64,000 nucleotides of DNA from Escherichia coli. GTDB taxonomy: Bacteria; Pseudomonadota; Gammaproteobacteria; Enterobacterales; Enterobacteriaceae. The translations under genes and the position numbers were made by a program. This document shows, one piece after another, positions 5,025 through 46,673 of this stretch (positions within the stretch are counted from its first letter, which is position 1; each line of letters starts with the position of its first letter). The notes under the pieces are model-generated. The model was given only the letters and a program-made list of their open reading frames with translations, ran no database searches and was not told the DNA's origin. Location of the stretch: NCBI RefSeq assembly GCF_045037415.1, contig NZ_CP173438.1; one strand, given 5' to 3'.

Positions 5025-5688
5025 ATGATCATTTCAAGACCAAATATTGATTCTGCAATTTCGGGACGTTACACTGTCTCCGCACCTTATAAAGCGGGTG
5101 CCGGGATTGGCGTCCTGAAATTGTCAACGGCGATGTATGACGCGCCAGCGTCTTTTTTATCGTCCGCATTTGCTCACATCCAGATTATGGTGGGCTGGGC
5201 GGGGGCACCGAAAGGTGCGCCGGTTCTCCGTTGACGCCGGTTACGCCAACCCCGTCCAGTTCACCACCAGTGAAATTGGCGTTTCCGGTGGTGGAAGTTT
5301 TTCACTGTCAACGGAGGCTGCCATCATGGCTACTGTCCTAACTTCCCCATTCCTAAAAATCGAAGTCGTCAACGGCAAGGCCGTTATTTTCTCCCTGCAT
5401 GTTGCCTGCCATTTCAAGCGCATGCACCAGAACATCGTTGACAAAATCGAGTATCTGAACTGCTCACGCGAGTTTTTTACCCGCAATTTCATACCGGGTA
5501 CTTATCACATCTACGGTGACTCCCTGCGTGGTTATTACATCACCCTTGATGGTCTGATGATGCTTCAGCTTGGGTTAAGTCTGCGCACAATGCGGTACTA
5601 CGAGAGCTGTATTGAAGCATTCCATGAGGCTGAAACCGTCCAGGGTCACTCCGCGTTCCGTCGTAATCAACGGGAGGTGCACCTATGA
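5025..5688 (+). pseudogene. Rha-family paralog, copy A, frameshifted between N-terminal extension and Rha domain
   Basis: 5025..5234 and 5137..5688 are in different frames; together they parallel the single 283-aa ORF at 5685 (shared IDSAI.GRYT..APYKAGAG start, Rha-like VNGKAVIFSLHVACHFKRMHQNIVDKI body); net +1 indel ~5180-5235. Confidence 0.4.
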
Positions 5689-6536
5689 TCCGCCACCAGC
5701 ATATTGATTCTGCAATTCCGGGACGTTACACTGCTCAGGCACCTTATAAAGCGGGTGCCGGGCGTGGAAACCCGAAATTCAATATAGAGCACAACCGCGC
5801 TCATGCGGTTTTTTCGTGTCATGAGCATCGTTACACCCAAATTATGGTGGGGCGTGCAGGGCCAACTTCGGTTGGGCCGGGTTCTATGTTGACCGGTATT
5901 TCCACCCCTGTACGTCTCACCACCTATATGGTCGTGGAAAGCCTTGGTGGTGAGTTCATTGAATTCAACATAGGGGCTGTCACCATGACTACTCTCCCAA
6001 CCCAATCTCACCCTGAAATCACGATTATCAATGGTCGCGTTGTCACCACATCTCTTGCAGTAGCTAATTACTTTACTAAACGGCATGAGCGGGTTTTAGA
6101 TAGAATTAGAAACCTCGAATGTTCCGCTGAATTTACTGAACACAATTTTGTGTTAAGTGAATACACCGACGCATCAGGCCGCAAACTCCCTTGTTACCAA
6201 ATCACCCGCGACGGTTTTGCGTTTCTTGCCATGGGCTTCACTGGTAAACGTGCTGCCCAGTTCAAAGAGGCATACATCAACGCCTTTAACCTGATGGAGA
6301 AGAGTTTATCAGGTGCCGATGCGTCTGATATGTCAGCTGTCGCACGAAACGCCAGAGGCGTATACCTGCATTTGCGTGAAATCCATCAAATCTGGACAAG
6401 CCAGCTTTATCCAATGCTTAAGGCCGTTGAATCTCCGCTGGCTAGCAAACTGTACGACCGTGTTGGTGATGCTGTTTTTGGCGCTGCACTTGTTGATTCC
6501 AGGCTGAATGGTTCTGACAAGGAGGTTCGCCCATGA
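5685..6536 (+). CDS. phage regulatory protein Rha (copy B)
   Basis: INGRVVTTSLAVANYFTKRHERVLDRIRNLECSAEF...YQITRDGFAFLAMGFTGKRAAQFKEAYINAFNLME matches the Rha-domain pattern; GGAGGTG RBS before ATG; the ~100-aa N-terminal extension may not be coding. Confidence 0.65.
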   Translation: MIRHQHIDSAIPGRYTAQAPYKAGAGRGNPKFNIEHNRAHAVFSCHEHRYTQIMVGRAGPTSVGPGSMLTGISTPVRLTTYMVVESLGGEFIEFNIGAVTMTTLPTQSHPEITIINGRVVTTSLAVANYFTKRHERVLDRIRNLECSAEFTEHNFVLSEYTDASGRKLPCYQITRDGFAFLAMGFTGKRAAQFKEAYINAFNLMEKSLSGADASDMSAVARNARGVYLHLREIHQIWTSQLYPMLKAVESPLASKLYDRVGDAVFGAALVDSRLNGSDKEVRP

Positions 6537-6727
6537 TTAGTTACGAAATCATCATCTCCACTACGGAATACAGAAACGATGTATCAGTTCGCACGGATGT
6601 ATCTGTCTGGCACCGTCGCTATAAATCCAGAAAAACAGCGGAACTGAAAGCGGCAGAGATGTGTGAAACCATCTCAATGAAAGGTAGCCCGGTTAAATAC
6701 GTAACTACGGCGGAGGTGCGTCCATGA
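6533..6727 (+). CDS. hypothetical protein (64 aa)
   Basis: ATGA stop/start overlap with previous gene; part of tightly coupled rightward early operon. Confidence 0.4.
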   Translation: MISYEIIISTTEYRNDVSVRTDVSVWHRRYKSRKTAELKAAEMCETISMKGSPVKYVTTAEVRP

Positions 6728-6948
6728 TCCGCCACATCGTTAATTCCCTGTATCACCGATACAACCGTTGCCCCCGTGTGGGGCAGTGGTTCGCCACCAG
6801 CAACGGTCACGTTCTGCGGGTTTGCCTAGTCAACGCTGAAAGCCAGAAAGTCGTGTGCGAACTACAGGGGCGTAGCTACACCATCAGTTACCCTCTGGCG
6901 GTATTTCTGTCTGGAAAAATGTTTAAGCGTCTGGGAGGTGTGGCGTGA
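6724..6948 (+). CDS. hypothetical protein (74 aa)
   Basis: Start context GGAGGTGCGTCCATGATCCGCCAC repeats the junction in front of the 5685 ORF; overlaps neighbours by 4 nt. Confidence 0.4.
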   Translation: MIRHIVNSLYHRYNRCPRVGQWFATSNGHVLRVCLVNAESQKVVCELQGRSYTISYPLAVFLSGKMFKRLGGVA

Positions 6949-7244
6949 ACTGTTTTCAGTTTGTGTGCGGATGTGCTTTCGATAACCCGATTCAGCGCCT
7001 AATTATGTTGCGTGTTTTGATGTCGGGTTCTTCAGACGGTGAAGGCGAGAGAGTTATTGATCATCAGGTGCTTGCTGATTTCTGCTGTTGTTCTAAGCAA
7101 GCGATATTCAGGGAAACCCTGGCACTGGAAAGAGCTGGTTATCTTCATATCCGAAAAATTGCAACGCTTACTATTGATGCAAAAGCCAGACTACAACCTG
7201 CGCGTGGCTACACAATTCTCATGCCGCGGAAGGAGGTTGTATGA
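6945..7244 (+). CDS. hypothetical protein (99 aa), possible DNA-binding
   Basis: Translationally coupled ORF directly upstream of replication gene. Confidence 0.4.
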   Translation: MNCFQFVCGCAFDNPIQRLIMLRVLMSGSSDGEGERVIDHQVLADFCCCSKQAIFRETLALERAGYLHIRKIATLTIDAKARLQPARGYTILMPRKEVV

Positions 7245-8227
7245 GCCGTTACGCCCCCACACCGGAAGTTATGGCTATTGGTCAAATTAATATTTCCGGC
7301 AATGTTACACCTGCGAACTGGTGGAAATATATTCGACTACCCAGTGGGCGTCCGGATGCGACGGCTATCGCTCTGCTTTCAGAGATCGTTTACTGGTACC
7401 GCCCGACAGAGGTCAGGGATGAGCACACCGGAGCGTTGCTGGGATATCGCAAGCGTTTTCAGGGCGACAAACTGCAAAGAAGCTACCAGGCGTTTGCTGA
7501 GCAGTTTGGTTTCGGGAAAAGGGAAACCGCAGATGCGCTGAAGCGTCTGCGCGATGCAGGGTTTATTACTCTGGATTTACGCACGGTGGAAATGCTCGAT
7601 GGGGTGAAATGCAGCAATATTTTGTTTGTCGGGATCAACCCACAGGCAATTGCGGCCATCACCACACCTTCTTCTGTTTCGCCAGAAAGTAACAGCAATA
7701 ATGCAATCAGCGATACAGCTATTACGTTAAAACGGAACACCCCCCGACGTCATAACGGAACAGGGGATACGCCGAATGTTGATACAAATACAGAGATTAC
7801 TACAGAGATTACAACGGAGACTAAAAACACTATTGATGCATCCGCTGACGCGTCTGCGCGTTCTGCCCGACAGGAATATTCACCGGAATTTGAACAGGCC
7901 TGGCAGGAATATCCCAAACGTGCTGGTGGCAATTCCAAGTCAGCAGCCTTCAAAGCCTGGAAAGCCCGTATCAGGGAGGGAATAAAACCGGAGACCATGC
8001 TTGATGGCGTGAAGCGGTATGCCGCCTGGGTACGTGCTACAGGAAATACCGGCACACAGTTCGTGAAGCAGGCTGCGACGTTCTTTGGACCCGATCGTCA
8101 CTTCGAAGATTACTGGCAACAGCCAGCCGCTCACGGAGGTGGGCGACAGCGACAGGTCGATGTCCTGGCTGGCCTGGGAGCCATGTCTGACAAATTCGGT
8201 AAATCCAGTAACAAATTGACATTCTGA
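7241..8227 (+). CDS. phage replication initiation protein (O-like; conserved phage replication C-terminal domain)
   Basis: Position before DnaC-like gene; C-terminal EYSPEFEQAWQEYPKRAGGNSKSAAFKAWKARI...GTQFVKQAATFF recalled as a conserved phage replication-protein C-terminus; short direct repeats in mid-gene. Confidence 0.6.
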   Translation: MSRYAPTPEVMAIGQINISGNVTPANWWKYIRLPSGRPDATAIALLSEIVYWYRPTEVRDEHTGALLGYRKRFQGDKLQRSYQAFAEQFGFGKRETADALKRLRDAGFITLDLRTVEMLDGVKCSNILFVGINPQAIAAITTPSSVSPESNSNNAISDTAITLKRNTPRRHNGTGDTPNVDTNTEITTEITTETKNTIDASADASARSARQEYSPEFEQAWQEYPKRAGGNSKSAAFKAWKARIREGIKPETMLDGVKRYAAWVRATGNTGTQFVKQAATFFGPDRHFEDYWQQPAAHGGGRQRQVDVLAGLGAMSDKFGKSSNKLTF

Positions 8228-35696: not shown

Positions 35697-38600
35697 ATGG
35701 GAAAAGGTGGCGGTAAGGCACACACGCCTCGTGAGGCGAAGGATAATCTCAAATCCACGCAGATGATGAGTGTGATTGATGCGATTGGTGAGGGACCGAT
35801 AGAAGGTCCGGTGAAGGGACTGCAGAGTATTCTGGTGAACAAAACCCCACTGACGGACACGGACGGCAATCCCGTGATACACGGTGTGACGGCGGTCTGG
35901 CGCGCCGGGGAGCAGGAGCAGACACCACCGGAAGGCTTTGAGTCCTCCGGAGCTGAAACCGGACTGGGCGTGGAAGTGACGAAGGCAAAACCGGTGACGC
36001 GCACCATTACGTCCGCGAACATTGACCGCCTGCGGGTTACCTTCGGGGTGCAGTCACTGGTGGAGACCACCTCAAAGGGTGACCGTAACCCGGCATCCGT
36101 CCGCCTGCTGATTCAGTTACAGCGTAACGGTAACTGGGTGACAGAAAAGGACGTCACCATTAACGGCAAGACCACCTCACAGTTCCTGGCCTCGGTGATT
36201 CTGGATAATCTGCCTCCCCGGCCCTTTAACATCCGGATGGTCAGGGAGACGGCGGACAGCACCACGGACCAGCTGCAGAATAAGACGCTGTGGTCGTCAT
36301 ACACCGAAATCATCGATGTGAAACAGTGCTACCCGAACACGGCCATTGTGGGGCTGCAGGTGGATGCGGAGCAGTTCGGCGGCCAGCAGATGACGGTGAA
36401 CTACCATATCCGCGGTCGCATCATCCAGGTGCCGTCAAACTATGACCCGGAAAAACGCACGTACAGTGGTATCTGGGACGGCAGTCTGAAACCGGCATAC
36501 AGCAACAACCCGGCCTGGTGCCTGTGGGACATGCTGACTCACCCGCGCTACGGCATGGGAAAACGTCTGGGGCGGCGGATGTGGACAAGTGGGCGCTGTA
36601 TGCCATCGGGCAGTACTGCGACCAGACGGTCCCGGATGGTTTCGGGGGGACCGAGCCGCGGATGACCTTTAATGCGTACCTGGCACAACAGCGTAAGGCG
36701 TGGGACGTTCTCAGTGATTTCTGCTCTGCGATGCGCTGTATGCCGGTATGGAACGGTCAGACGCTGACGTTCGTTCAGGACCGCCCGTCGGATGTGGTGT
36801 GGCCGTACACCAACAGCGATGTGGTGGTGGATGATAACGGCGTGGGATTCCGCTACAGCTTCAGTGCCCTGAAGGACCGGCACACGGCGGTGGAGGTGAA
36901 TTACACCGACCCGCAGAACGGCTGGCAGACCTCCACGGAACTGGTGGAAGACCCGGAAGCCATACTGCGCTACGGACGCAACCTGCTGAAGATGGACGCG
37001 TTCGGCTGTACCAGCCGCGGTCAGGCCCACCGTGCCGGACTGTGGGTGATAAAGACCGAACTGCTGGAAACGCAGACGGTGGATTTCACGCTCGGGTTCT
37101 CAGGGGCTGCGGCACACACCCGGTGACATTATTGAAATCTGTGATAATGACTATGCCGGGACCCTGACCGGCGGACGTGTCCTGTCCATTGATGCTGCCA
37201 CCCGCACCCTGACGCTGGACCGTGAGGTTACCCTGCCGGAGACAGGTACATCGGCGGTGAACCTGATTAACGGCAGCGGTAAGCCGGTGAGTGTGGACAT
37301 CACCGCACACCCCGCGCCGGACCGGATACAGGTCAGTACCCTGCCTGATGGTGTGGAGACATACGGGGTGTGGGGACTCTCCCTGCCGTCACTGCGCCGT
37401 CGCCTGTTCCGCTGTGTCTCCATCCGGGAAAACACGGACGGCACCTTTGCCATCACGGCGGTGCAGCACGTACCGGAAAAAGAAGCCATCGTGGATAACG
37501 GTGCCCGCTTTGAGCCGCAGTCAGGTTCCCTGAACAGCGTCATCCCACCGGCAGTGCAGCACCTGACGGTGGAGGTGAGCGCAGCTGACGGCCAGTATCT
37601 GGCGCAGGCGAAATGGGACACGCCGCGGGTGGTGAAGGGTGTGTGCTTCAGTCTGCGCCTGACCAGTGGTAAGGGAACGGATGCCAGACTGGTGACCACC
37701 GCCATCACCGCAGACACGGAGCACCGTTTCAGCGGCCTGCCGCTCGGGGAATACACCCTGACGGTGCGGGCGATAAACAGCTATGGCCAGCAGGGTGAAC
37801 CTGCCACCACCACCTTCCGGATTACCGCACCGGCAGCACCGTCGCGGATTGAGCTGACGCCGGGCTATTTTCAGATAACCGCAACGCCACATCTTGCCGT
37901 TTATGACCCGACGGTACAGTTTGAGTTCTGGTTCTCGGAAAAGCGGATTGCGGATATCAGGCAGGTTGAAACCGCAGCCCGCTATCTTGGCTCGGCGCTG
38001 TACTGGATAGCTGCCAGTATCAATATCAAACCGGGCCATGATTATTATTTTTATATCCGCAGTGTGAATACTGTTGGCAAATCGGCATTCGTGGAGGCTG
38101 TCGGTCGGGCGAGCGATGATGCGGAAGGTTACCTGGATTTTTTCAAAGGAGAAATCGGGAAAACACATCTGGCCCAGGAGCTGTGGACGCAGATTGATAA
38201 CGGTCAGCTTGCGCCGGACCTGGCTGAAATCAGGACGTCCATTACGAATGTCAGCAATGAAATCACGCAGACCGTCAATAAAAAACTGGAAAATCAGAGT
38301 GCGGCAATCCAGCAGATACAGAAAGTTCAGGTTGATACAAATAATAACCTGAACAGCATGTGGGCCGTGAAACTGCAGCAGATGCAGGACGGACGCCTTT
38401 ATATTGCGGGTATCGGTGCCGGTATTGAGAATACGCCAGCAGGAATGCAGAGTCAGGTGCTGCTGGCGGCAGACAGGATTGCGATGATTAATCCTGCGAA
38501 TGGCAACACAAAGCCGATGTTTGTTGGTCAGGGCGATCAGATATTTATGAATGAAGTGTTCCTGAAATATCTGACGGCTCCCACCATTACCAGCGGCGGT

Positions 38601-39170
38601 AATCCTCCGGCATTTTCCCTGACACCGGACGGGCGGCTGACGGCGAAAAATGCCGATATCAGCGGTAACGTGAATGCGAACTCCGGGACGCTCAACAACG
38701 TCACGATTAACGAGAACTGTCGGGTTCTGGGAAAATTGTCCGCGAACCAGATTGAAGGCGATCTCGTTAAAACAGTGGGCAAAGCTTTCCCCCGGGACTC
38801 CCGTGCACCGGAGCGGTGGCCATCAGGAACCATTACCGTCAGGGTTTATGACGATCAGCCGTTTGACCGGCAGATTGTTATTCCGGCGGTGGCATTCAGC
38901 GGCGCTAAACATGAGAAAGAGCATACTGATATTTACTCCTCATGCCGTCTGATAGTGCGGAAAAACGGTGCTGAAATTTATAACCGTACCGCGCTGGATA
39001 ATACGCTGATTTACAGTGGTGTTATTGATATGCCTGCCGGTCACGGTCACATGACACTGGAGTTTTCGGTGTCAGCATGGCTGGTAAATAACTGGTATCC
39101 CACAGCAAGTATCAGCGATTTGCTGGTTGTGGTGATGAAGAAAGCCACTGCAGGCATCACGATTAGCTGA
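35697..39170 (+). pseudogene. J: tail tip fibre / host specificity protein J, interrupted by two frameshifts
   Basis: Three ORFs (35697..36665, 36518..37126, 37257..39170) together collinear with lambda J; first and third share a frame, middle segment is shifted; 1-nt loss in G-run 36569-36572, 1-nt gain at ~37097-37103. Confidence 0.8.
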
Positions 39171-39987: not shown

Positions 39988-42900
39988 ATGACAGTAAAAA
40001 TTTCTGGCGTGCTTAAAGATGGCACAGGAAAACCAGTACAGAACTGCACCATTGTGCTGAAGGCCAGACGAACCAGCAGCACGGTGGTGGTGAACACGGT
40101 GGCCTCTGAAAATCCGGATGAAGCCGGACGTTACAGCATGGATGTTGAGCATGGTCAGTACAGCGTCACCCTGCTGGTTGAAGGTTTTCCGCCTTCACAT
40201 GCCGGGACCATTACCGTCTATGAAGGTTCCAGACCAGGTACGCTGAATGATTTTCTCGGTGCCATGACGGAGGATGATGTCCGACCGGAGGCACTGCGCC
40301 GCTTTGAGCAGATGGTGGAAGAGGTGTCACGTAACGCCTCCGCGGTTGCACAGAATACGGCAGCCGCGAAAAAATCAGCCAGCGATGCCAGTGCATCAGC
40401 CAGCGAGGCGGCAACTCATGCAACCGATGCTGCAGCCTCAGCACGTGCCGCCAGCACGTCAGCCGGACAGGCCGCGTCGTCGGCTCAGTCAGCGTCTTCC
40501 AGCGCAGGAACGGCATCGACAAAGGCCCGTGAAGCAGCAAAAAGTGCTGCTGCTGCAGAGTCATCAAAAAGCGCGGCAGCTACCAGCGCCAGTGCCGCGA
40601 AAACGTCAGAAACGAATGCCGCAGCATCACAAAAATCGGCAGCCACTTCTGCATCCACAGCGACCACGAAGGCGTCAGAAGCTGCCACCTCGGCACGGGG
40701 TGCGGCGGCCTCAAAAGAGGCAGCGAAATCTTCAGAAACGAATGCATCATCAAGTGCCAGTAGTGCAGCTTCCTCGGCAACGGCGGCAGGAAATTCCGCG
40801 AAGGCGGCAAAAACGTCCGAGACGAACGCTAAGTCTTCTGAAACAGCAGCGGGACAGAGCGCCTCAGCTGCGGCAGGTTCAAAAACAGCGGCTGCATTAT
40901 CTGCCAGTGCCGCGTCAACAAGTGCCGGGCTGGCCTCAGCCAGTGCCACCGCCGCCGGAAAATCGGCAGAAAGCGCCGCATCATCCGCTTCAACAGCCAC
41001 AACGAAGGCTGGCAAAGCCACTGAGCAAGCCACTGCAGCAGCGAGGTCTGCTTCTGCAGCAAAAACCTCTGAAACAAATGCAAAGACTTCAGCAGACAAT
41101 GCTGCTTCCTCTAAGGCGGCAGCCGCATCGTCAGCCAGTTCAGCGGCGTCATCGGCATCATCTGCGTCTGCTTCAAAAGATGAGGCGACCAGACAAGCGT
41201 CAGCAGCGAAAGGTAGTGCCACGACAGCAACAACGAAAGCATCAGAGGCGGCAGGCAGTGCGACGGCTGCATCTCAGAGCAAAGTTGCTGCTGAATCCGC
41301 GGCAACGCGCGCTGAGATAGCGGCAAAACGGGCAGAGGATATTGCATCCGCCGTGGCGCTTGAGGATGCGAGCACGACGAAAAAGGGGATAGTACAGCTC
41401 AGTAGTGCGACTAACAGCACTTCCGAGTCACTGGCGGCAACACCAAAAGCCGTTAAGGCCGCGTATGACCTGGCTAGCGGGAAATACACCGCACAGGATG
41501 CAACGACAGCACAGAAAGGGATAATCCAGCTAAGCAGCGCGACCAACAGCACGTCTGAAACGCTGGCGGCAACGCCAAAGGCAGTAAAAGCAGCCAATGA
41601 CAATGCTGAGAAACGTCTGCAGAAAGATCAGAACGGTGCGGATATCCCTGGCAAAGACACCTTTACGAAAAATATTGGTGCCTGCCGTGCCTTCGGTGGG
41701 TCAGTAAGCACAACAACAGGAAACTGGACGACTGCACAGTTTATCGAGTGGCTGGATTCTCAGGGAGCATTTAACCATCCATACTGGATGTGCAAGGGTT
41801 CCTGGTCTTATGGCAATAATAAAATCATTACTGATACTGGCTGCGGTAATATTCATCTCGCCGGAGCTGTCATTGAAGTAATGGGGATAAAGTCAGCGAT
41901 GACGATCCGCATTACCACTCCGACCACATCCAGCGGTGGCGGAACAACCAACGCCCAGTTTACCTATATTAATCACGGAACAGATTATTCACCTGGCTGG
42001 CGAAGGGACTATAACTCCAGAAATAAGCCAACGGCATCAGAGATCGGGGCGCTACCGTCAGGTGGAACAGCAGTATCATCAGTTAATCTGGCTTCAAAAG
42101 GTCGGGTAGCCGCGCTGACAGACAATACGCAGGGGGCAGCAGGTCTTGAGTTATACGAGGTGTATAACAACGGATATCCAACAACGTATGGAAATATCAT
42201 TCACCTGAAAGGGATGACAGCCGTTGGCGAAGGTGAGTTACTCATCGGCTGGAGTGGTACAAGCGGTGCTCATGCTCCGGCATTTATTCGTTCACGACGG
42301 GATACGACCGACGCAAACTGGTCGCCGTGGGCGCAGCTTTACACCTCGGCTCATCCTCCTGCAGAGTTTTATCCAGTCGGTGCACCAATCCCGTGGCCAT
42401 CAGATACCGTTCCGTCTGGTTATGTCCTGATGCAGGGGCAGACTTTTGACAAATCTGCATACCCGAAACTTGCAGCCGCTTATCCGTCAGGCGTGATCCC
42501 TGATATGCGTGGCTGGACGATTAAGGGCAAACCTGCCAGTGGTCGGGCCGTATTGTCTCAGGAACAGGACGGCATTAAATCGCACACCCACAGCGCCAGC
42601 GCATCCAGTACGGATTTGGGGACGAAAACCACATCGTCGTTTGATTACGGCACTAAATCCACGAATAACATCGGGGCGCATACGCACAGTGTGAGCGGTA
42701 CAGCCGCAAGTGCCGGAAACCATACTCATAGTGTCACAGGCGCATCAGCAGTCAGCCAGTGGTCACAAAATGGGTCAGTACATAAGGTAGTGTCTGCGGC
42801 CAGTGTGAATACAAGTGCTGCAGGAGCGCACACTCATAGTGTCAGCGGCACAGCTGCATCTGCAGGTGCTCACGCACATACTGTCGGTATTGGTGCTCAT

Positions 42901-43014
42901 ACGCACTCGGTTGCGATTGGCTCACATGGACACACCATCACCGTTAACGCTGCTGGTAACGCGGAAAACACCGTCAAAAACATCGCATTTAACTATATTG
43001 TGAGGCTTGCATGA
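39988..43014 (+). CDS. stf: side tail fibre protein Stf (Ala/Ser-rich repeat shaft, His-box C-terminus)
   Basis: 1008 aa; N-terminus like lambda Stf; long low-complexity A/S/T-rich shaft; C-terminus with HTHS/HAHT repeats ending [18 protein letters not shown] as in lambda Stf. Confidence 0.85.
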
Positions 43015-43913
43015 TTACGCTCATTCTTTCTGCACCAGTAACCGAAATGGCTGAAGCATTTAAGCGGGTATTTGCAAATGCAGATAATGTGAATATTGTC
43101 GGAAAGCCATTTGAAACAATCAGAGAATTTGACTGCATGGTAAGTGCGGCAAATAGTTTCGGCCTGATGGATGGCGGTGTTGATGCCGCCATTACCACAT
43201 TCTTCGGTTCTCAGCTACAGGCCCGCGTTCAGAATCATATTCTTCGTGAATATCTCGGCGAGCAGCCTGTAGGTTCTGCATTTGTTATTGAAACGGGGCA
43301 TAATTATCACCCCTGGCTGGTACATGCGCCAACAATGCGTGTTCCGTTGACAATTGACGGAACAGACGCTGTATATAACGCAACTTGGGCAGCTCTACTT
43401 GCTATCTTTCAGCACAATAAAAACGCAACGACAGACAGGAAAATAAAGACGGTGGTATTCCCTGCAATGGGAGCCGGATGTGGTCAGGTGCCGTTTGAAA
43501 GCGTTGCCCGGCAGATGAAGCAGGCATGGGATAACTTTAATAAAAAAACAGAATCAATTAACTGGGAATACGCACAATCCCGCCAGTCGGCAGTATTTGG
43601 CACATATGCATACTGTCCGGGTAATTCTGTTTGCCGTTATGCGGATACTAAATATATTGGATGCGGCGATTATCGGACGTATTGCTCACGCTCCGGGCAG
43701 GTCTGTATTAACCCTGAACATCAGGCTGATGATGTACTGATACAACATCAGGCTAATAACCGGTTTCGCCCTGGTTCGCATATACACCGGATTAATCCAG
43801 AAAATCCTGTAGGTAATGTCATCTCTGGCGCACATAGCCACGGAAGTAGCATCGTTATTGGTGCTCACACCCATACGCTCAATAAACAATATTCTGTCTC
43901 TGATATTAAGTAG
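43011..43913 (+). CDS. macro-domain protein with tail-fibre-like His-box C-terminus
   Basis: ATGA overlap with stf; residues ~40-190 carry macro-domain blocks ([51 protein letters not shown]) by comparison with recalled E. coli YmdB; last ~45 aa ([18 protein letters not shown]) resemble fibre tips. Confidence 0.55.
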
Positions 43914-43915
43914 AG

Positions 43916-44506
43916 GTGAACATGGATTTCAGAATGAGTGAACAACCACGGACCATAACAATTTATAATCTGCTGGCCGGAACTAATGAATTTATTGGTG
44001 AAGGTGACGCATACATTCCGCCTCATACAGGTCTGCCAGCAAACAGTACCGATATTGCACCGCCAGATATTCCGGCTGGTTTCGTGGCTGTTTTCAACAG
44101 TGATGAGTCATCGTGGCATCTCGTTGAAGATCATCGGGGTAAAACGGTTTATGACGTGGCTTCCGGCGACGCGTTATTTATTTCTGAACTCGGCTCATTA
44201 CCGGAAAATGTCACCTGGTTATCCCCGGAAGGGGAGTTTCAGAAGTGGAACGGCACAGCCTGGGTGAAGGATACGGAAGCAGAAAAACTGTTCCGGATCC
44301 GGGAGGCGGAAGAAACAAAAAACAGCCTGATGCAGGTAGCCAGTGAGCATATAGCGCCGCTTCAGGATGCTGTGGATCTGGAGATCGCAACGGAGAAAGA
44401 AACCTTGTTGCTGGAAGCCTGGAAAAAGTATCGGGTGTTGCTGAACCGTGTTGATACATCAACTGCACCTGATATTGAGTGGCCTGCGGTCCCTGTTATG
44501 GAGTAA
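43916..44506 (+). CDS. tfa: tail fibre assembly chaperone Tfa
   Basis: 196 aa; Tfa-like N-terminal [30 protein letters not shown] and conserved C-terminus. Confidence 0.85.
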
Positions 44507-44618: not shown

Positions 44619-45995
44619 CTATGATATCCCTGAAATGTCCTCTTCAAGCTCTTTTACTGATTTCGCAATTTTAAATTTAAATTTTCTCTCTATTTCACTA
44701 TTGCTAAGTTTTTTTTCATTCTCTTTCCCTATCCACATAGAAACAATTTCTCGTTTCTGAGATATATGTAGATTGTCAAAGTTAGGTATGTATTTAAAAG
44801 TCTCCGCTCTACCCCTGCGGAGTTCATAGAAAGTTTTAATCAAAGACTTTGGTTTTATTTCTGATGAAAGGCCGAATCGGCGGATAAGATTATTGATCGT
44901 ATGATTAACAGCTCGAAGTTGAGCTGTTGACGTTATTTGTGAGAAGTACGATACCCATCCCAATCGTTTACCTTCAAACACACATCCCGTAATTCTAAGA
45001 TTTAGTTTCCACTGACAATATGCAACAGCTCGTTCTTTATCGTGCTTATTTTTAGCTTGTAGTAGAGCGTGTCTATATGCAGTAAAAATTTTTGCTAAGG
45101 ATGACTCAAATCTAAGAATGCTCTCATGTTTTATCAATAATTCTCGATTTTTTATGTGGTAGCCCAAAAAGTTGAAACTTTCATCCAAGCTGCCTACTTT
45201 GGATTTTGAGTTCTCTTCATTTAATGGATGTGGGTTTAAATTTAATGATTGAAGCTTATCAATGATATGAGATGCAATTTTTGTTGCTTGATCTTTTTGC
45301 GTTAAAATAAGAATGTCATCAACGTATCGCATGTACCATATGTCATGCATTTTATTGATTTCATTGTCGAAATCAGATAGTGATATTTCAGCTAAAATGT
45401 TTGATATTGCTAACCCCTGAGGTACTCCTCTGGTATTATTAGGGACACCTTTGCTTCCTGTACTTCCACTTACAGTAGGCACGATTAATGATGATGTTAT
45501 TAACTGCCTAATTTCTTTTTTTCTAATCTTATTTTTTATTGCATTAAATATCAATTTATGTTCAATTGAAGGATAGAAACTTTTGAGATCTATTTTTGCA
45601 TATTCAGCATATAGATCGCTGTTTAATGCATTTTTCAATAAGTCAATTACTGTATGTGGTAGTTTTAATCTGGAGTTAGGATATATTTCTGTAAGGCATT
45701 CACAGAGAGCCCTAAGGGTAATTCTGTCCCTGGCAGTTGGTATGGAAATCTGTCTGGGGATAGAGTTAGCCCCTTTAGATATTAATTTTTCTTTATATGC
45801 TGTAAATTTATAATTTCCACAATTAACCTTTTCAAAAATAAAAGTGATCTCATTCTTTATTGTTAAATCAAGTTTTGATGGACGAATCCGATCTATGCCA
45901 ATCGCTCCTGATTCTTTGATTTTTTCATTGTATACTTTTAGAAGGTTTTTTTTCGAGAATGACTTTTTAAAAACTCTGCTTGCATTCATAGTCAA
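44619..45995 (-). CDS. reverse transcriptase (defence-associated / retron-like type), with C-terminal extension
   Basis: 458 aa; RT blocks RQISIPTARDRITLRAL, YAKIDLKSFYPSIEH, GVPQGLAISNILAEISL, catalytic YVDD (YMRYVDDILILT); AT-rich codon usage. Confidence 0.8.
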   Translation of the reverse strand: MTMNASRVFKKSFSKKNLLKVYNEKIKESGAIGIDRIRPSKLDLTIKNEITFIFEKVNCGNYKFTAYKEKLISKGANSIPRQISIPTARDRITLRALCECLTEIYPNSRLKLPHTVIDLLKNALNSDLYAEYAKIDLKSFYPSIEHKLIFNAIKNKIRKKEIRQLITSSLIVPTVSGSTGSKGVPNNTRGVPQGLAISNILAEISLSDFDNEINKMHDIWYMRYVDDILILTQKDQATKIASHIIDKLQSLNLNPHPLNEENSKSKVGSLDESFNFLGYHIKNRELLIKHESILRFESSLAKIFTAYRHALLQAKNKHDKERAVAYCQWKLNLRITGCVFEGKRLGWVSYFSQITSTAQLRAVNHTINNLIRRFGLSSEIKPKSLIKTFYELRRGRAETFKYIPNFDNLHISQKREIVSMWIGKENEKKLSNSEIERKFKFKIAKSVKELEEDISGIS

Positions 45996-46518
45996 TCCAA
46001 AGACATATTAATGGGAGGATATAAAGGCCGACAGTAATAAACATTCGACGTAATATCCATAATTTAACAATTATTTTTTCTTTTTGTGTGGGGAGTCTAG
46101 TCGTAAGTCCAACTTGAGTTACCCTTGAAACTTTATCATCTATGTCACGATGATTCTCAACCTCATTGAGCAAATTAAAATATTTTTCTTTCTGTTCAAG
46201 AGTTAACTGTTGGCCGTTATTAATATCAAAATAGAGTCTCTGTAGTGCAATATAATTCCTTCTCATGGCTATTGCTCGACCACGATAATCTAGGTTAGAT
46301 ACGATCAGAGAAATACCCAGTAGAGCCACTGAAAGTATTGCCGCAACGATATCTGTATTATCTCCTAGAAATTTTGGAAATCGTAACGTTATAATTGAAA
46401 GTACCGCACTCAATATAGCATACCAAACGAGGATAAATTGAGAGTGTTTTTCAAGCCATTCTAGTCTATGGTGCGCTTGAATACGGGCTTTATATGTAAA
46501 CCAAATATTTTCATGCAT
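45967..46518 (-). CDS. small membrane protein (two adjacent TM helices, SLATT-like), putative effector
   Basis: 183 aa from MHENIW (AAGGA RBS 6 nt upstream); helices FILVWYAILSAVLSIITLRF and IVAAILSVALLGISLIVSNL; overlaps RT start by 29 nt. Confidence 0.55.
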   Translation of the reverse strand: MHENIWFTYKARIQAHHRLEWLEKHSQFILVWYAILSAVLSIITLRFPKFLGDNTDIVAAILSVALLGISLIVSNLDYRGRAIAMRRNYIALQRLYFDINNGQQLTLEQKEKYFNLLNEVENHRDIDDKVSRVTQVGLTTRLPTQKEKIIVKLWILRRMFITVGLYILPLICLWIDYECKQSF

Positions 46519-46538
46519 AAAATATCCTTTTAAAAAGC

Positions 46539-46673
46539 GGAAGGGGCAGGATATATTGGAACCGTTGAACATCCTGCTCGGCAGGATCAGTGAGCATAAG
46601 CTCAACAGTAAAATATTACTGTTCATTATCAGAGCCGCCCTTGCATACGCAAGAGGAAAAAACTGCCCCATCC
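46539..46673 (-). ncRNA. candidate structured non-coding RNA upstream of the membrane-protein/RT operon
   Basis: Imperfect 12-nt inverted repeat GGAAGGGGCAGG (46539-46550) / ACTGCCCCATCC (46662-46673) enclosing four perfect hairpins (46571-46587, 46592-46603, 46606-46621, 46640-46653); strand assigned by operon context only. Confidence 0.35.

Follow-up and report, generated by a model that had tools for sequence, protein, structure and literature searches.

The 64,000-nucleotide stretch of Escherichia coli DNA analyzed here in full (RefSeq assembly GCF_045037415.1, contig NZ_CP173438.1; hereafter the window) carries a lambda-like prophage in which an open reading frame (ORF) of 300 codons stands between stf, the side tail fibre gene, and tfa, the tail fibre assembly gene. 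Its product divides into a macrodomain (residues 1-200), a Cys-rich segment (residues 201-241) and a C-terminal tail with repeated His boxes (residues 242-300). What is new here is the combination, a Macro2-type macrodomain with a fibre-like tail that is built into a fibre cassette. An initial annotation of the window had already placed this ORF between stf and tfa with its start codon over the stf stop, and both points are borne out by the coordinates and by a clean indel in alignments: the macro ATG (43011-43013) overlaps the stf TGA (43012-43014) as ATGA, with a GAGG inside the last stf codons, 5 nt 5' of the ATG. At the other end, the TAG stop (43911-43913) is separated by 8 nt from the tfa ATG at 43922, which replaces the GTG at 43916 that had earlier been read as the tfa start.

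When comparing this locus with two E. coli loci that have no macro gene, we found the indel precisely where stf stops and tfa starts (GCATAATGGCATTCAGAATG versus GCATGATTACG...[0.9 kb]...GTAGAGGTGAACATGGATTTCAGAATG). On either side, the cassette is bordered by sequence nearly the same as in the macro-less Esc17 locus, at 99% amino acid identity for the Stf tip and 95% for Tfa. The stf junction, GTGAGGCTnGC(A/G)TGA, is present in all 85 tail-bearing loci that were examined (78 usable loci on viral contigs and 7 others), and with its ATGA and Shine-Dalgarno-like GAGG it supports the translational coupling to stf proposed in the initial annotation. In 5 of the 7 loci compared, the 3' end of the macro gene runs into tfa, with an ATGA in Erwinia, Citrobacter and Enterobacter and an 11-nt overlap in SEN4 and Gifsy-1. 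Promoter-like and terminator-like sites around the macro gene are at or below shuffle expectation, and none brackets the gene. GC content is 44-48% in the macro gene, 50% in the adjoining stf end, 44-48% at the start of tfa and 31-37% in the defence island downstream. Because no promoter or terminator of its own rises above chance, its GC content is near that of its flanks and both junctions are of the coupling type, the macro gene is an operon member rather than a moron (an autonomous accessory gene), sharing a transcript with the fibre and Tfa genes and coupled to them in translation. We also considered a fusion of Stf and the macro protein by -1 frameshifting, which is excluded because there is a conserved TAA in the macro frame seven codons 5' of the ATG and no slippery heptamer between them. 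On sequence grounds, the gene reads as an optional third cistron of a T4-gp37-type fibre-tip/Tfa cassette.

The macrodomain is identified by several independent searches. Pfam Macro (PF01661) matches residues 44-169 over its entire length (model 1-118/118; E = 1.1e-18), and the AlphaFold2 (AF2) monomer has predicted local distance difference test (pLDDT) values above 90 across residues 1-200. Foldseek comparison to the PDB gave 201 matches at E<=0.001, mostly macrodomains and designs on the TTHA0132 macro scaffold, so that by AF2 and Foldseek together residues 1-200 are predicted to have the three-layer alpha/beta/alpha macro fold. The macrodomain of the initial annotation therefore stands, with an extent of about 1-200 instead of 40-190, but its comparison with E. 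coli YmdB does not hold. NCBIfam equivalog models of the MacroD/YmdB type score at most 52 bits versus cut-offs of 200-315 (the best 51.9 bits versus 246; YmdB-type models 21-34 bits versus 200-271), and YmdB structures rank about 33rd by fold. The nearest characterized relative is instead the Macro2-type yeast protein Ymx7 (YMR087W, PDB 1NJR). It is the top fold match in the PDB (E = 4e-11 over 201 columns, root-mean-square deviation 2.9; next best 2e-7), and the family profile aligns to almost its entire domain, including the N-terminal beta-alpha-beta extension (E = 9.6e-18; next best 2.3e-11); Pfam Macro_2 itself gives a weak match (E = 5.9e-4). The two proteins have signatures in common, VS(A/P)(A/G)NS(F/Y)G...GG(V/F)D and PG/A(L/M)(G/C)(T/A)G, but are only about 20% identical, and Ymx7 is a free eukaryotic enzyme with neither a Cys-rich nor a His-box tail and with no link to viruses.

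The ADP-ribose pocket appears to be intact. Its predicted residues are N48, D58, H105 and the loop G154-G158, and the first three align, counted along the profile alignment, with Ymx7 N80, D90 and H145, which are reportedly the catalytic residues of that enzyme (Kumaran et al. 2005). The pocket and all signature residues of the family are invariant in 22/22 tail-bearing members, which suggests binding of an ADP-ribose ligand. DarG (5M3I) is a more distant relative of the macro protein, with E = 3.8e-6 by Foldseek and 7e-4 by profile, as is a T4-like Tk.4 (E = 5.8e-5); PADLOC, DarG-type models included, assigned 0 families to the protein at E<=0.001.

Between the macrodomain and the tail, the Cys-rich segment follows the consensus AYCPx4-5C...YIGxGDYRTYCxxSGxxCIxxxHQxDD, with conserved C202, C208, C225 and C232 (spacing CX4-5C...CX6C). 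AF2 models it at pLDDT 65-74 with a hairpin at 211-225. Among 50,697 phage genomes both this segment and the tail were found only on this macro subfamily, plus one relic in Salmonella phage SEN34. The SEN34 remnant (locus L012, 4001..4183) is isolated, adjoins an O-acetyltransferase gene and corresponds to residues 184-244 of the window protein at 61% identity; it retains the last part of the macro core plus the Cys-rich segment but neither the rest of the macrodomain nor the His boxes, suggesting a cassette that has decayed.

The tail itself contains three G[AST]HxH boxes in 59 residues (255-259, 273-277 and 284-288), a count reached by 0/100,000 shuffles of the tail. To judge its resemblance to a fibre, we compared it with the genuine fibre end just upstream. 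The last ~200 residues of Stf correspond to the receptor-binding tip of T4 gp37, with a collar, a His-box needle and a conserved C-terminal end, and five fibre ends of this kind, combined in a profile, match the T4 gp37 tip (PDB 2XGF) at E = 3.6e-84, the very C-terminus included. The fibres upstream of all relatives likewise have a genuine gp37-type tip at their end. In the gp37 needle, HxH motifs of three chains coordinate iron (Fe2+) along the three-fold axis; this tip structure, with iron bound by HxH along the needle axis, was reportedly described by Bartual et al. in 2010. BLASTP of the tail against the upstream Stf gave a weak alignment to the Stf His boxes (E = 0.002, 16/42 identical), and hhalign aligned the tail family with the fibre-tip family at 72% probability (E = 3e-5) over 30 columns, covering the last three needle His boxes; phmmer found no match to the tail in the PDB at E<=10. 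The collar, head and NYIVRLA end of the gp37-type tip are absent from the 300-residue protein and present in the upstream Stf. The tail-fibre resemblance is thus real but confined to the repeated GxHxH motif, at the level of about 30 residues. Derivation of the tail from a duplicated stf 3' end was considered and rejected, the similarity by BLASTP and hhalign being at the motif level only. The initial annotation had likened the protein to an enzyme domain grafted onto an alternative fibre C-terminus: its fibre-tip-like His boxes are confirmed by the shuffle test, whereas the graft was an overstatement, with a Cys-rich segment intervening and the tail not an alternative fibre end because it has no collar, head or fibre C-terminus. 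At its extreme end, a 1-nt indel (TAT versus TAAT) distinguishes window 43890..43913 from phage Chuche (locus L001, 4860..4900), whose protein ends ...LNKQ; the last seven residues of the window protein (YSVSDIK) look dispensable because the Chuche protein stops seven codons earlier.

Table 1. Features of the fibre locus and its surroundings in the window
Feature	Coordinates	Strand	Evidence or remark
Lambda-like prophage tail region			J, lom, stf, macro ORF, tfa, in that order
J, three ORFs	35697..36665, 36518..37126, 37257..39170 (region 35697..39170)	+	
stf, side tail fibre, 1008 aa	39988..43014	+	ORF list
Stf low-complexity and repeat stretch	40300..41450	+	~380 residues rich in Ala/Ser/Thr, then two copies of a ~35-aa unit
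stf/macro coupling junction	43002..43014	+	Shine-Dalgarno-like GAGG 43002-43005, then ATGA 43011-43014
Macrodomain-tail gene, 300 aa	43011..43913	+	ORF; identical to RefSeq WP_000631346.1
Macrodomain, residues 1-200	43011..43610	+	Pfam, AF2, Foldseek, profile
Cys-rich segment, residues 201-241	43611..43733	+	Alignments, AF2 hairpin
His-box tail, residues 242-300	43734..43910	+	Shuffle test, hhalign
His boxes GSHIH, GAHSH, GAHTH	43773-43787, 43827-43841, 43860-43874	+	
macro/tfa junction	43913..43924	+	Shine-Dalgarno GAGGTG and tfa ATG
tfa, tail fibre assembly protein	43922..44506	+	Lambda Tfa / TfaQ family, Caudo_TAP
Rfam RF02111 'IS009'	44265..44463	+	218 bits versus gathering score 117
Reverse transcriptase, class UG17	44619..45995	-	PADLOC RT_UG17, E 8e-159
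SLATT-domain membrane protein	45967..46671	-	RTasSLATT, E 2e-57
After tfa			Reverse transcriptase/SLATT pair, then chromosomal yecD, aspS

Our search for the same arrangement in other prophages was successful. The order of a fibre gene (ending ...VRLA stop), the macro-tail gene and tfa was found in every tail-bearing member examined, including 78/78 loci on viral contigs. These include lambdoid loci (the window prophage and Gifsy-1 STM2588.1n, the latter already annotated with Pfam Macro), P2-like loci (phages Chuche and SEN4/5), a Mu-like Enterobacter prophage and other myovirus-type prophages of Erwinia and Citrobacter. On the 78 viral contigs, a recognizable tfa follows in 75, the macro ORF is intact in 75 (~96%) and at least one His box is found in 76 (1-4 boxes each, in tails of highly variable length and sequence); the orthologous Tfa neighbours in related loci match Pfam Caudo_TAP_N/Caudo_TAP. 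The macro core is 69-96% identical across genera. Pairwise ratios of nonsynonymous to synonymous substitution (dN/dS) are 0.08-0.20 for the macro part, 0.13-0.52 for the Cys-rich segment and 0.23-0.48 for the His-box tail, indicating that all three parts are translated and under purifying selection, the tail most loosely. These observations bear on whether the ORF could be an inert passenger left by recombination, a role that the initial annotation had listed. Such a relic could be expected to be as rare as this cassette is, the window prophage does have a frameshifted J, and truncations or frameshifts occur in a few alleles (L080, L095 and P0022). The relic reading is nevertheless very improbable, and we reject it because ~96% of the copies are intact, dN/dS is below 1 in all parts and the three-part architecture with its junctions is kept in five genera (Escherichia, Salmonella, Erwinia, Citrobacter and Enterobacter) whose synonymous divergence is saturated. 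The other two roles raised in the initial annotation, a virion-associated enzyme and a counter-defence reverser of ADP-ribosylation, both stay candidates.

To estimate how often the cassette occurs, we surveyed 5,426 complete E. coli genomes, in which about 13,600 places with an stf end and tfa include 130 with the cassette, in 127 genomes, all annotated as "macro domain-containing protein". Of these 130 copies, 22 are borne on plasmids of ~100 kb, and the four listed plasmids (97-124 kb) are probably phage-plasmids. On one E. coli plasmid, p1 (locus L013, NZ_CP195943.1, ~101 kb, 5158..7493), IS26 has removed the fibre gene except for its last 31 codons, leaving macro and tfa intact. We considered a fibre-assembly or quality-control factor, that is, a second chaperone beside Tfa in which the macro fold serves as a scaffold with no ADP-ribose chemistry. 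Co-translation with fibre and Tfa fits such a role, and the His boxes might act as a template or cap for the needle. We regard this as a distinctly improbable explanation, given that identical fibre tips and Tfa work without the macro gene in thousands of prophages and that a pure scaffold would not hold every pocket residue invariant.

The wider macro family places these proteins in context. The core family comprises 2,360 representative clusters, mostly stand-alone proteins of ~200 residues, plus eukaryotic fusions. Stand-alone phage relatives (PHROG 14717; P0121; phiRSL1 ORF054; Noxifer gp281; PhiPA3 gp271) share the macro core (30-63% identity) and its signature residues, but have no C-terminal tail and are placed among non-structural genes. 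All four of the tail-less homologues whose neighbourhoods we compared (P0121, phiRSL1 ORF054, P106B gp77 and Noxifer gp281) lie amid such genes, and the tail therefore appears to go with residence in a gp37-type fibre operon. The closest of them, P0121 (63% identical), is found between ParB_N and methyltransferase genes, upstream of terminase. On its metagenomic phage contig (locus L007, 2104..5487), the ParB_N gene and a gene for a 460-residue methyltransferase lie on one side and a 239-residue ORF on the other, and a second ParB_N gene and a lambda-type terminase follow downstream, in what looks like an anti-defence or DNA-modification region. Three of the four tail-less homologues are labelled 'tail protein', with P0121 carrying no annotation, and these labels probably derive from the annotation of the enterobacterial genes. 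We did not accept 'tail protein' or 'tail assembly-like' labels on jumbo- and Rhizobium-phage homologues as evidence for a place in the virion, their neighbourhoods being non-structural and the proteins tail-less.

A rival reading is a free cytoplasmic counter-defence enzyme or sponge that removes ADP-ribose marks or destroys or sequesters signals, with a tail that only oligomerizes and a place in the fibre operon that provides late expression and hitch-hiking on the most recombination-prone cassette. The fully conserved pocket is consistent with this, as are the close tail-less homologues in accessory or early phage regions beside ParB and methyltransferase genes, and an optional, rare cassette that shows no co-adaptation with fibre or Tfa resembles accessory anti-defence genes. 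There is also precedent in phage macrodomains, AdfM/Tk.4, that neutralize DarTG2 (10.1101/2025.11.20.689424; PMC13309987). AdfM (T4 Tk.4; PhiKZ gp104 / PhiPA3 gp108) and DarG are distant fold relatives of the window protein, AdfM being the phage macrodomains with a demonstrated counter-defence role, but they belong to another, DarG2-like clade with an N/K catalytic pair and are free, soluble and made early. PhiPA3 has both a DarG2-like AdfM (gp108) and a separate relative of the window macro family (gp271), so that one macro type does not make the other redundant (PMC13309987). Together with the lack of a PADLOC match, DarG-type models included, this speaks against a free enzyme, which would also leave unexplained why a Cys-rich/His-box tail occurs only on the copies in fibre operons and why it resembles the adjacent needle. 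We consider a free cytoplasmic enzyme somewhat unlikely, but the main alternative.

At the opposite end stands display on the virion. Like the genes for the T4 gp38 and lambda Tfa chaperones and for the T2-type gp38 adhesins, the macro gene lies directly downstream of a gp37-type fibre gene and is translationally coupled; T2-type gp38 sits on the fibre tip. The macro protein could by this comparison be an accessory adhesin or surface enzyme at the fibre tip, as T2-type gp38 is on gp37, with a macrodomain that binds or cleaves a ribose-phosphate surface glycan and so alters host range. Its gene does hold the adhesin/chaperone position, its tail evolves fast in the manner of receptor-recognition modules, and the module moves between lambdoid, P2-like and Mu-like tails and those of other myovirus-type prophages. 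We find this quite unlikely all the same. The macro protein has no sequence or domain similarity to gp38 or Tfa (no Pfam or PHROG match to Caudo_TAP domains was found in it), carries an enzyme fold and is followed by a bona fide tfa. Unlike in adhesins, the would-be binding part, the macro core, is the most conserved (69-96% identity across genera, dN/dS ~0.1), and its pocket has the residues seen in intracellular ADP-ribose enzymes from bacteria to eukaryotes; to our knowledge, enterobacteria have no ADP-ribose-like surface receptor.

The explanation we favor, tentatively, is an oligomer made late, held together by a metal zipper and associated with the fibre or Tfa, which presents a hydrolase or binder of ADP-ribose derivatives, probably for counter-defence. 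The macro gene is translated by termination-reinitiation at the ATGA, from the late transcript of stf and tfa. In this model, the tail would oligomerize through metal-bound His boxes, most likely as a trimer, probably with help from the co-translated Tfa chaperone, and the Cys-rich segment would probably bind metal as well. Through this oligomer the macrodomains may be held on the complex in which fibre and Tfa assemble, or on the completed fibre, where they would bind or hydrolyze 1''-substituted ADP-ribose. Candidate ligands are ADP-ribose-1''-phosphate, ADP-ribosyl adducts and immune signals derived from ADP-ribose. By analogy with AdfM/Tk.4, which neutralize DarTG2, the biological role would most likely be counter-defence. 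In Pseudomonas phages, the side tail fibre and its chaperone set sensitivity to type II Thoeris, whose signal, histidine-ADP-ribose (His-ADPR), is read by a macrodomain (10.64898/2026.06.04.730250). Because fibre and chaperone set this sensitivity and the signal is His-ADPR, a fibre-linked macrodomain is an attractive candidate antidote.

Several observations weigh against this favored model. The AF2 monomer is disordered at 239-300, and AF2 of three tails joined by glycine-serine linkers gave pLDDT 31 with no oligomer signal. In common alleles, single His boxes have degenerated (IGTPTHT, GAYNHG, PNSHGNH), and the tail is the part under the weakest constraint. The cassette is rare and dispensable, and with the fibre tip and Tfa as similar as noted above with or without it, no allele-specific co-adaptation is visible. 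The one Macro2-type enzyme studied, Ymx7, is an ADP-ribose-1''-phosphate phosphatase that is reported to have no activity in removing mono-ADP-ribosylation (PMC6397177), and late expression is poor timing against early-acting defences. Oligomerization, metal binding, Tfa dependence and virion association are all predictions. A more specific version, which we put forward as an unlikely 'trigger-linked antidote', supposes that some defences based on Toll/interleukin-1 receptor (TIR) domains or on ADP-ribose sense the fibre-tip/chaperone complex. The His-box metal zipper would tether the macrodomain there, and it would destroy or sequester a 1''-substituted ADP-ribose signal (e.g. His-ADPR or glycocyclic ADP-ribose, gcADPR) or remove an ADP-ribosyl mark where it is made, so that antidote would move with trigger when fibre cassettes recombine.

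Further features of the window surround the cassette. J is split into three ORFs and is annotated as 'frameshifted' in a 100%-identical RefSeq genome; because of this frameshift the window copy of the prophage is probably defective, though stf, macro and tfa are intact. Long spurious ORFs run on the opposite strand and in other frames across the low-complexity stretch of Stf. The Rfam match 'IS009' lies wholly within the tfa coding sequence. Right after tfa, at the prophage end, the 31-37% GC island holds the overlapping genes for RT_UG17 and RTasSLATT, which make up a defence pair of the defence-associated reverse transcriptase (DRT) type.

Members of this family have already been catalogued, as "macro domain-containing protein" in RefSeq (WP_000631346.1), under "unknown function" in PHROG 2613 and in the annotation of Gifsy-1. 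In the searchable literature we found no description of the family's architecture, of its strict linkage to gp37-type fibre operons or of its function; the paper on phages SEN4/SEN5 has nothing specific on the fibre-locus macro protein and contains no proteomics.

Macrodomains are now recognized as counter-defence tools of phages, and the known examples are free early proteins. In the subfamily described here, an ancient ADP-ribose enzyme bears a fibre-like His-box tail and is wired by translational coupling into a cassette that moves more than any other in tailed phages. Its members occur in E. coli prophages, those of ST131 and O157 among them, and in prophages of Salmonella (Gifsy-1), Citrobacter, Enterobacter and Erwinia. 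Should it prove to be only a cytoplasmic enzyme, it would still be an uncharacterized anti-defence candidate of the Macro2 type. If the tethering is true, it would represent a new way to attach cargo to a gp37-type fibre, useful for engineering, and would provide a testable link between the sensing of fibres and ADP-ribose-based immunity.

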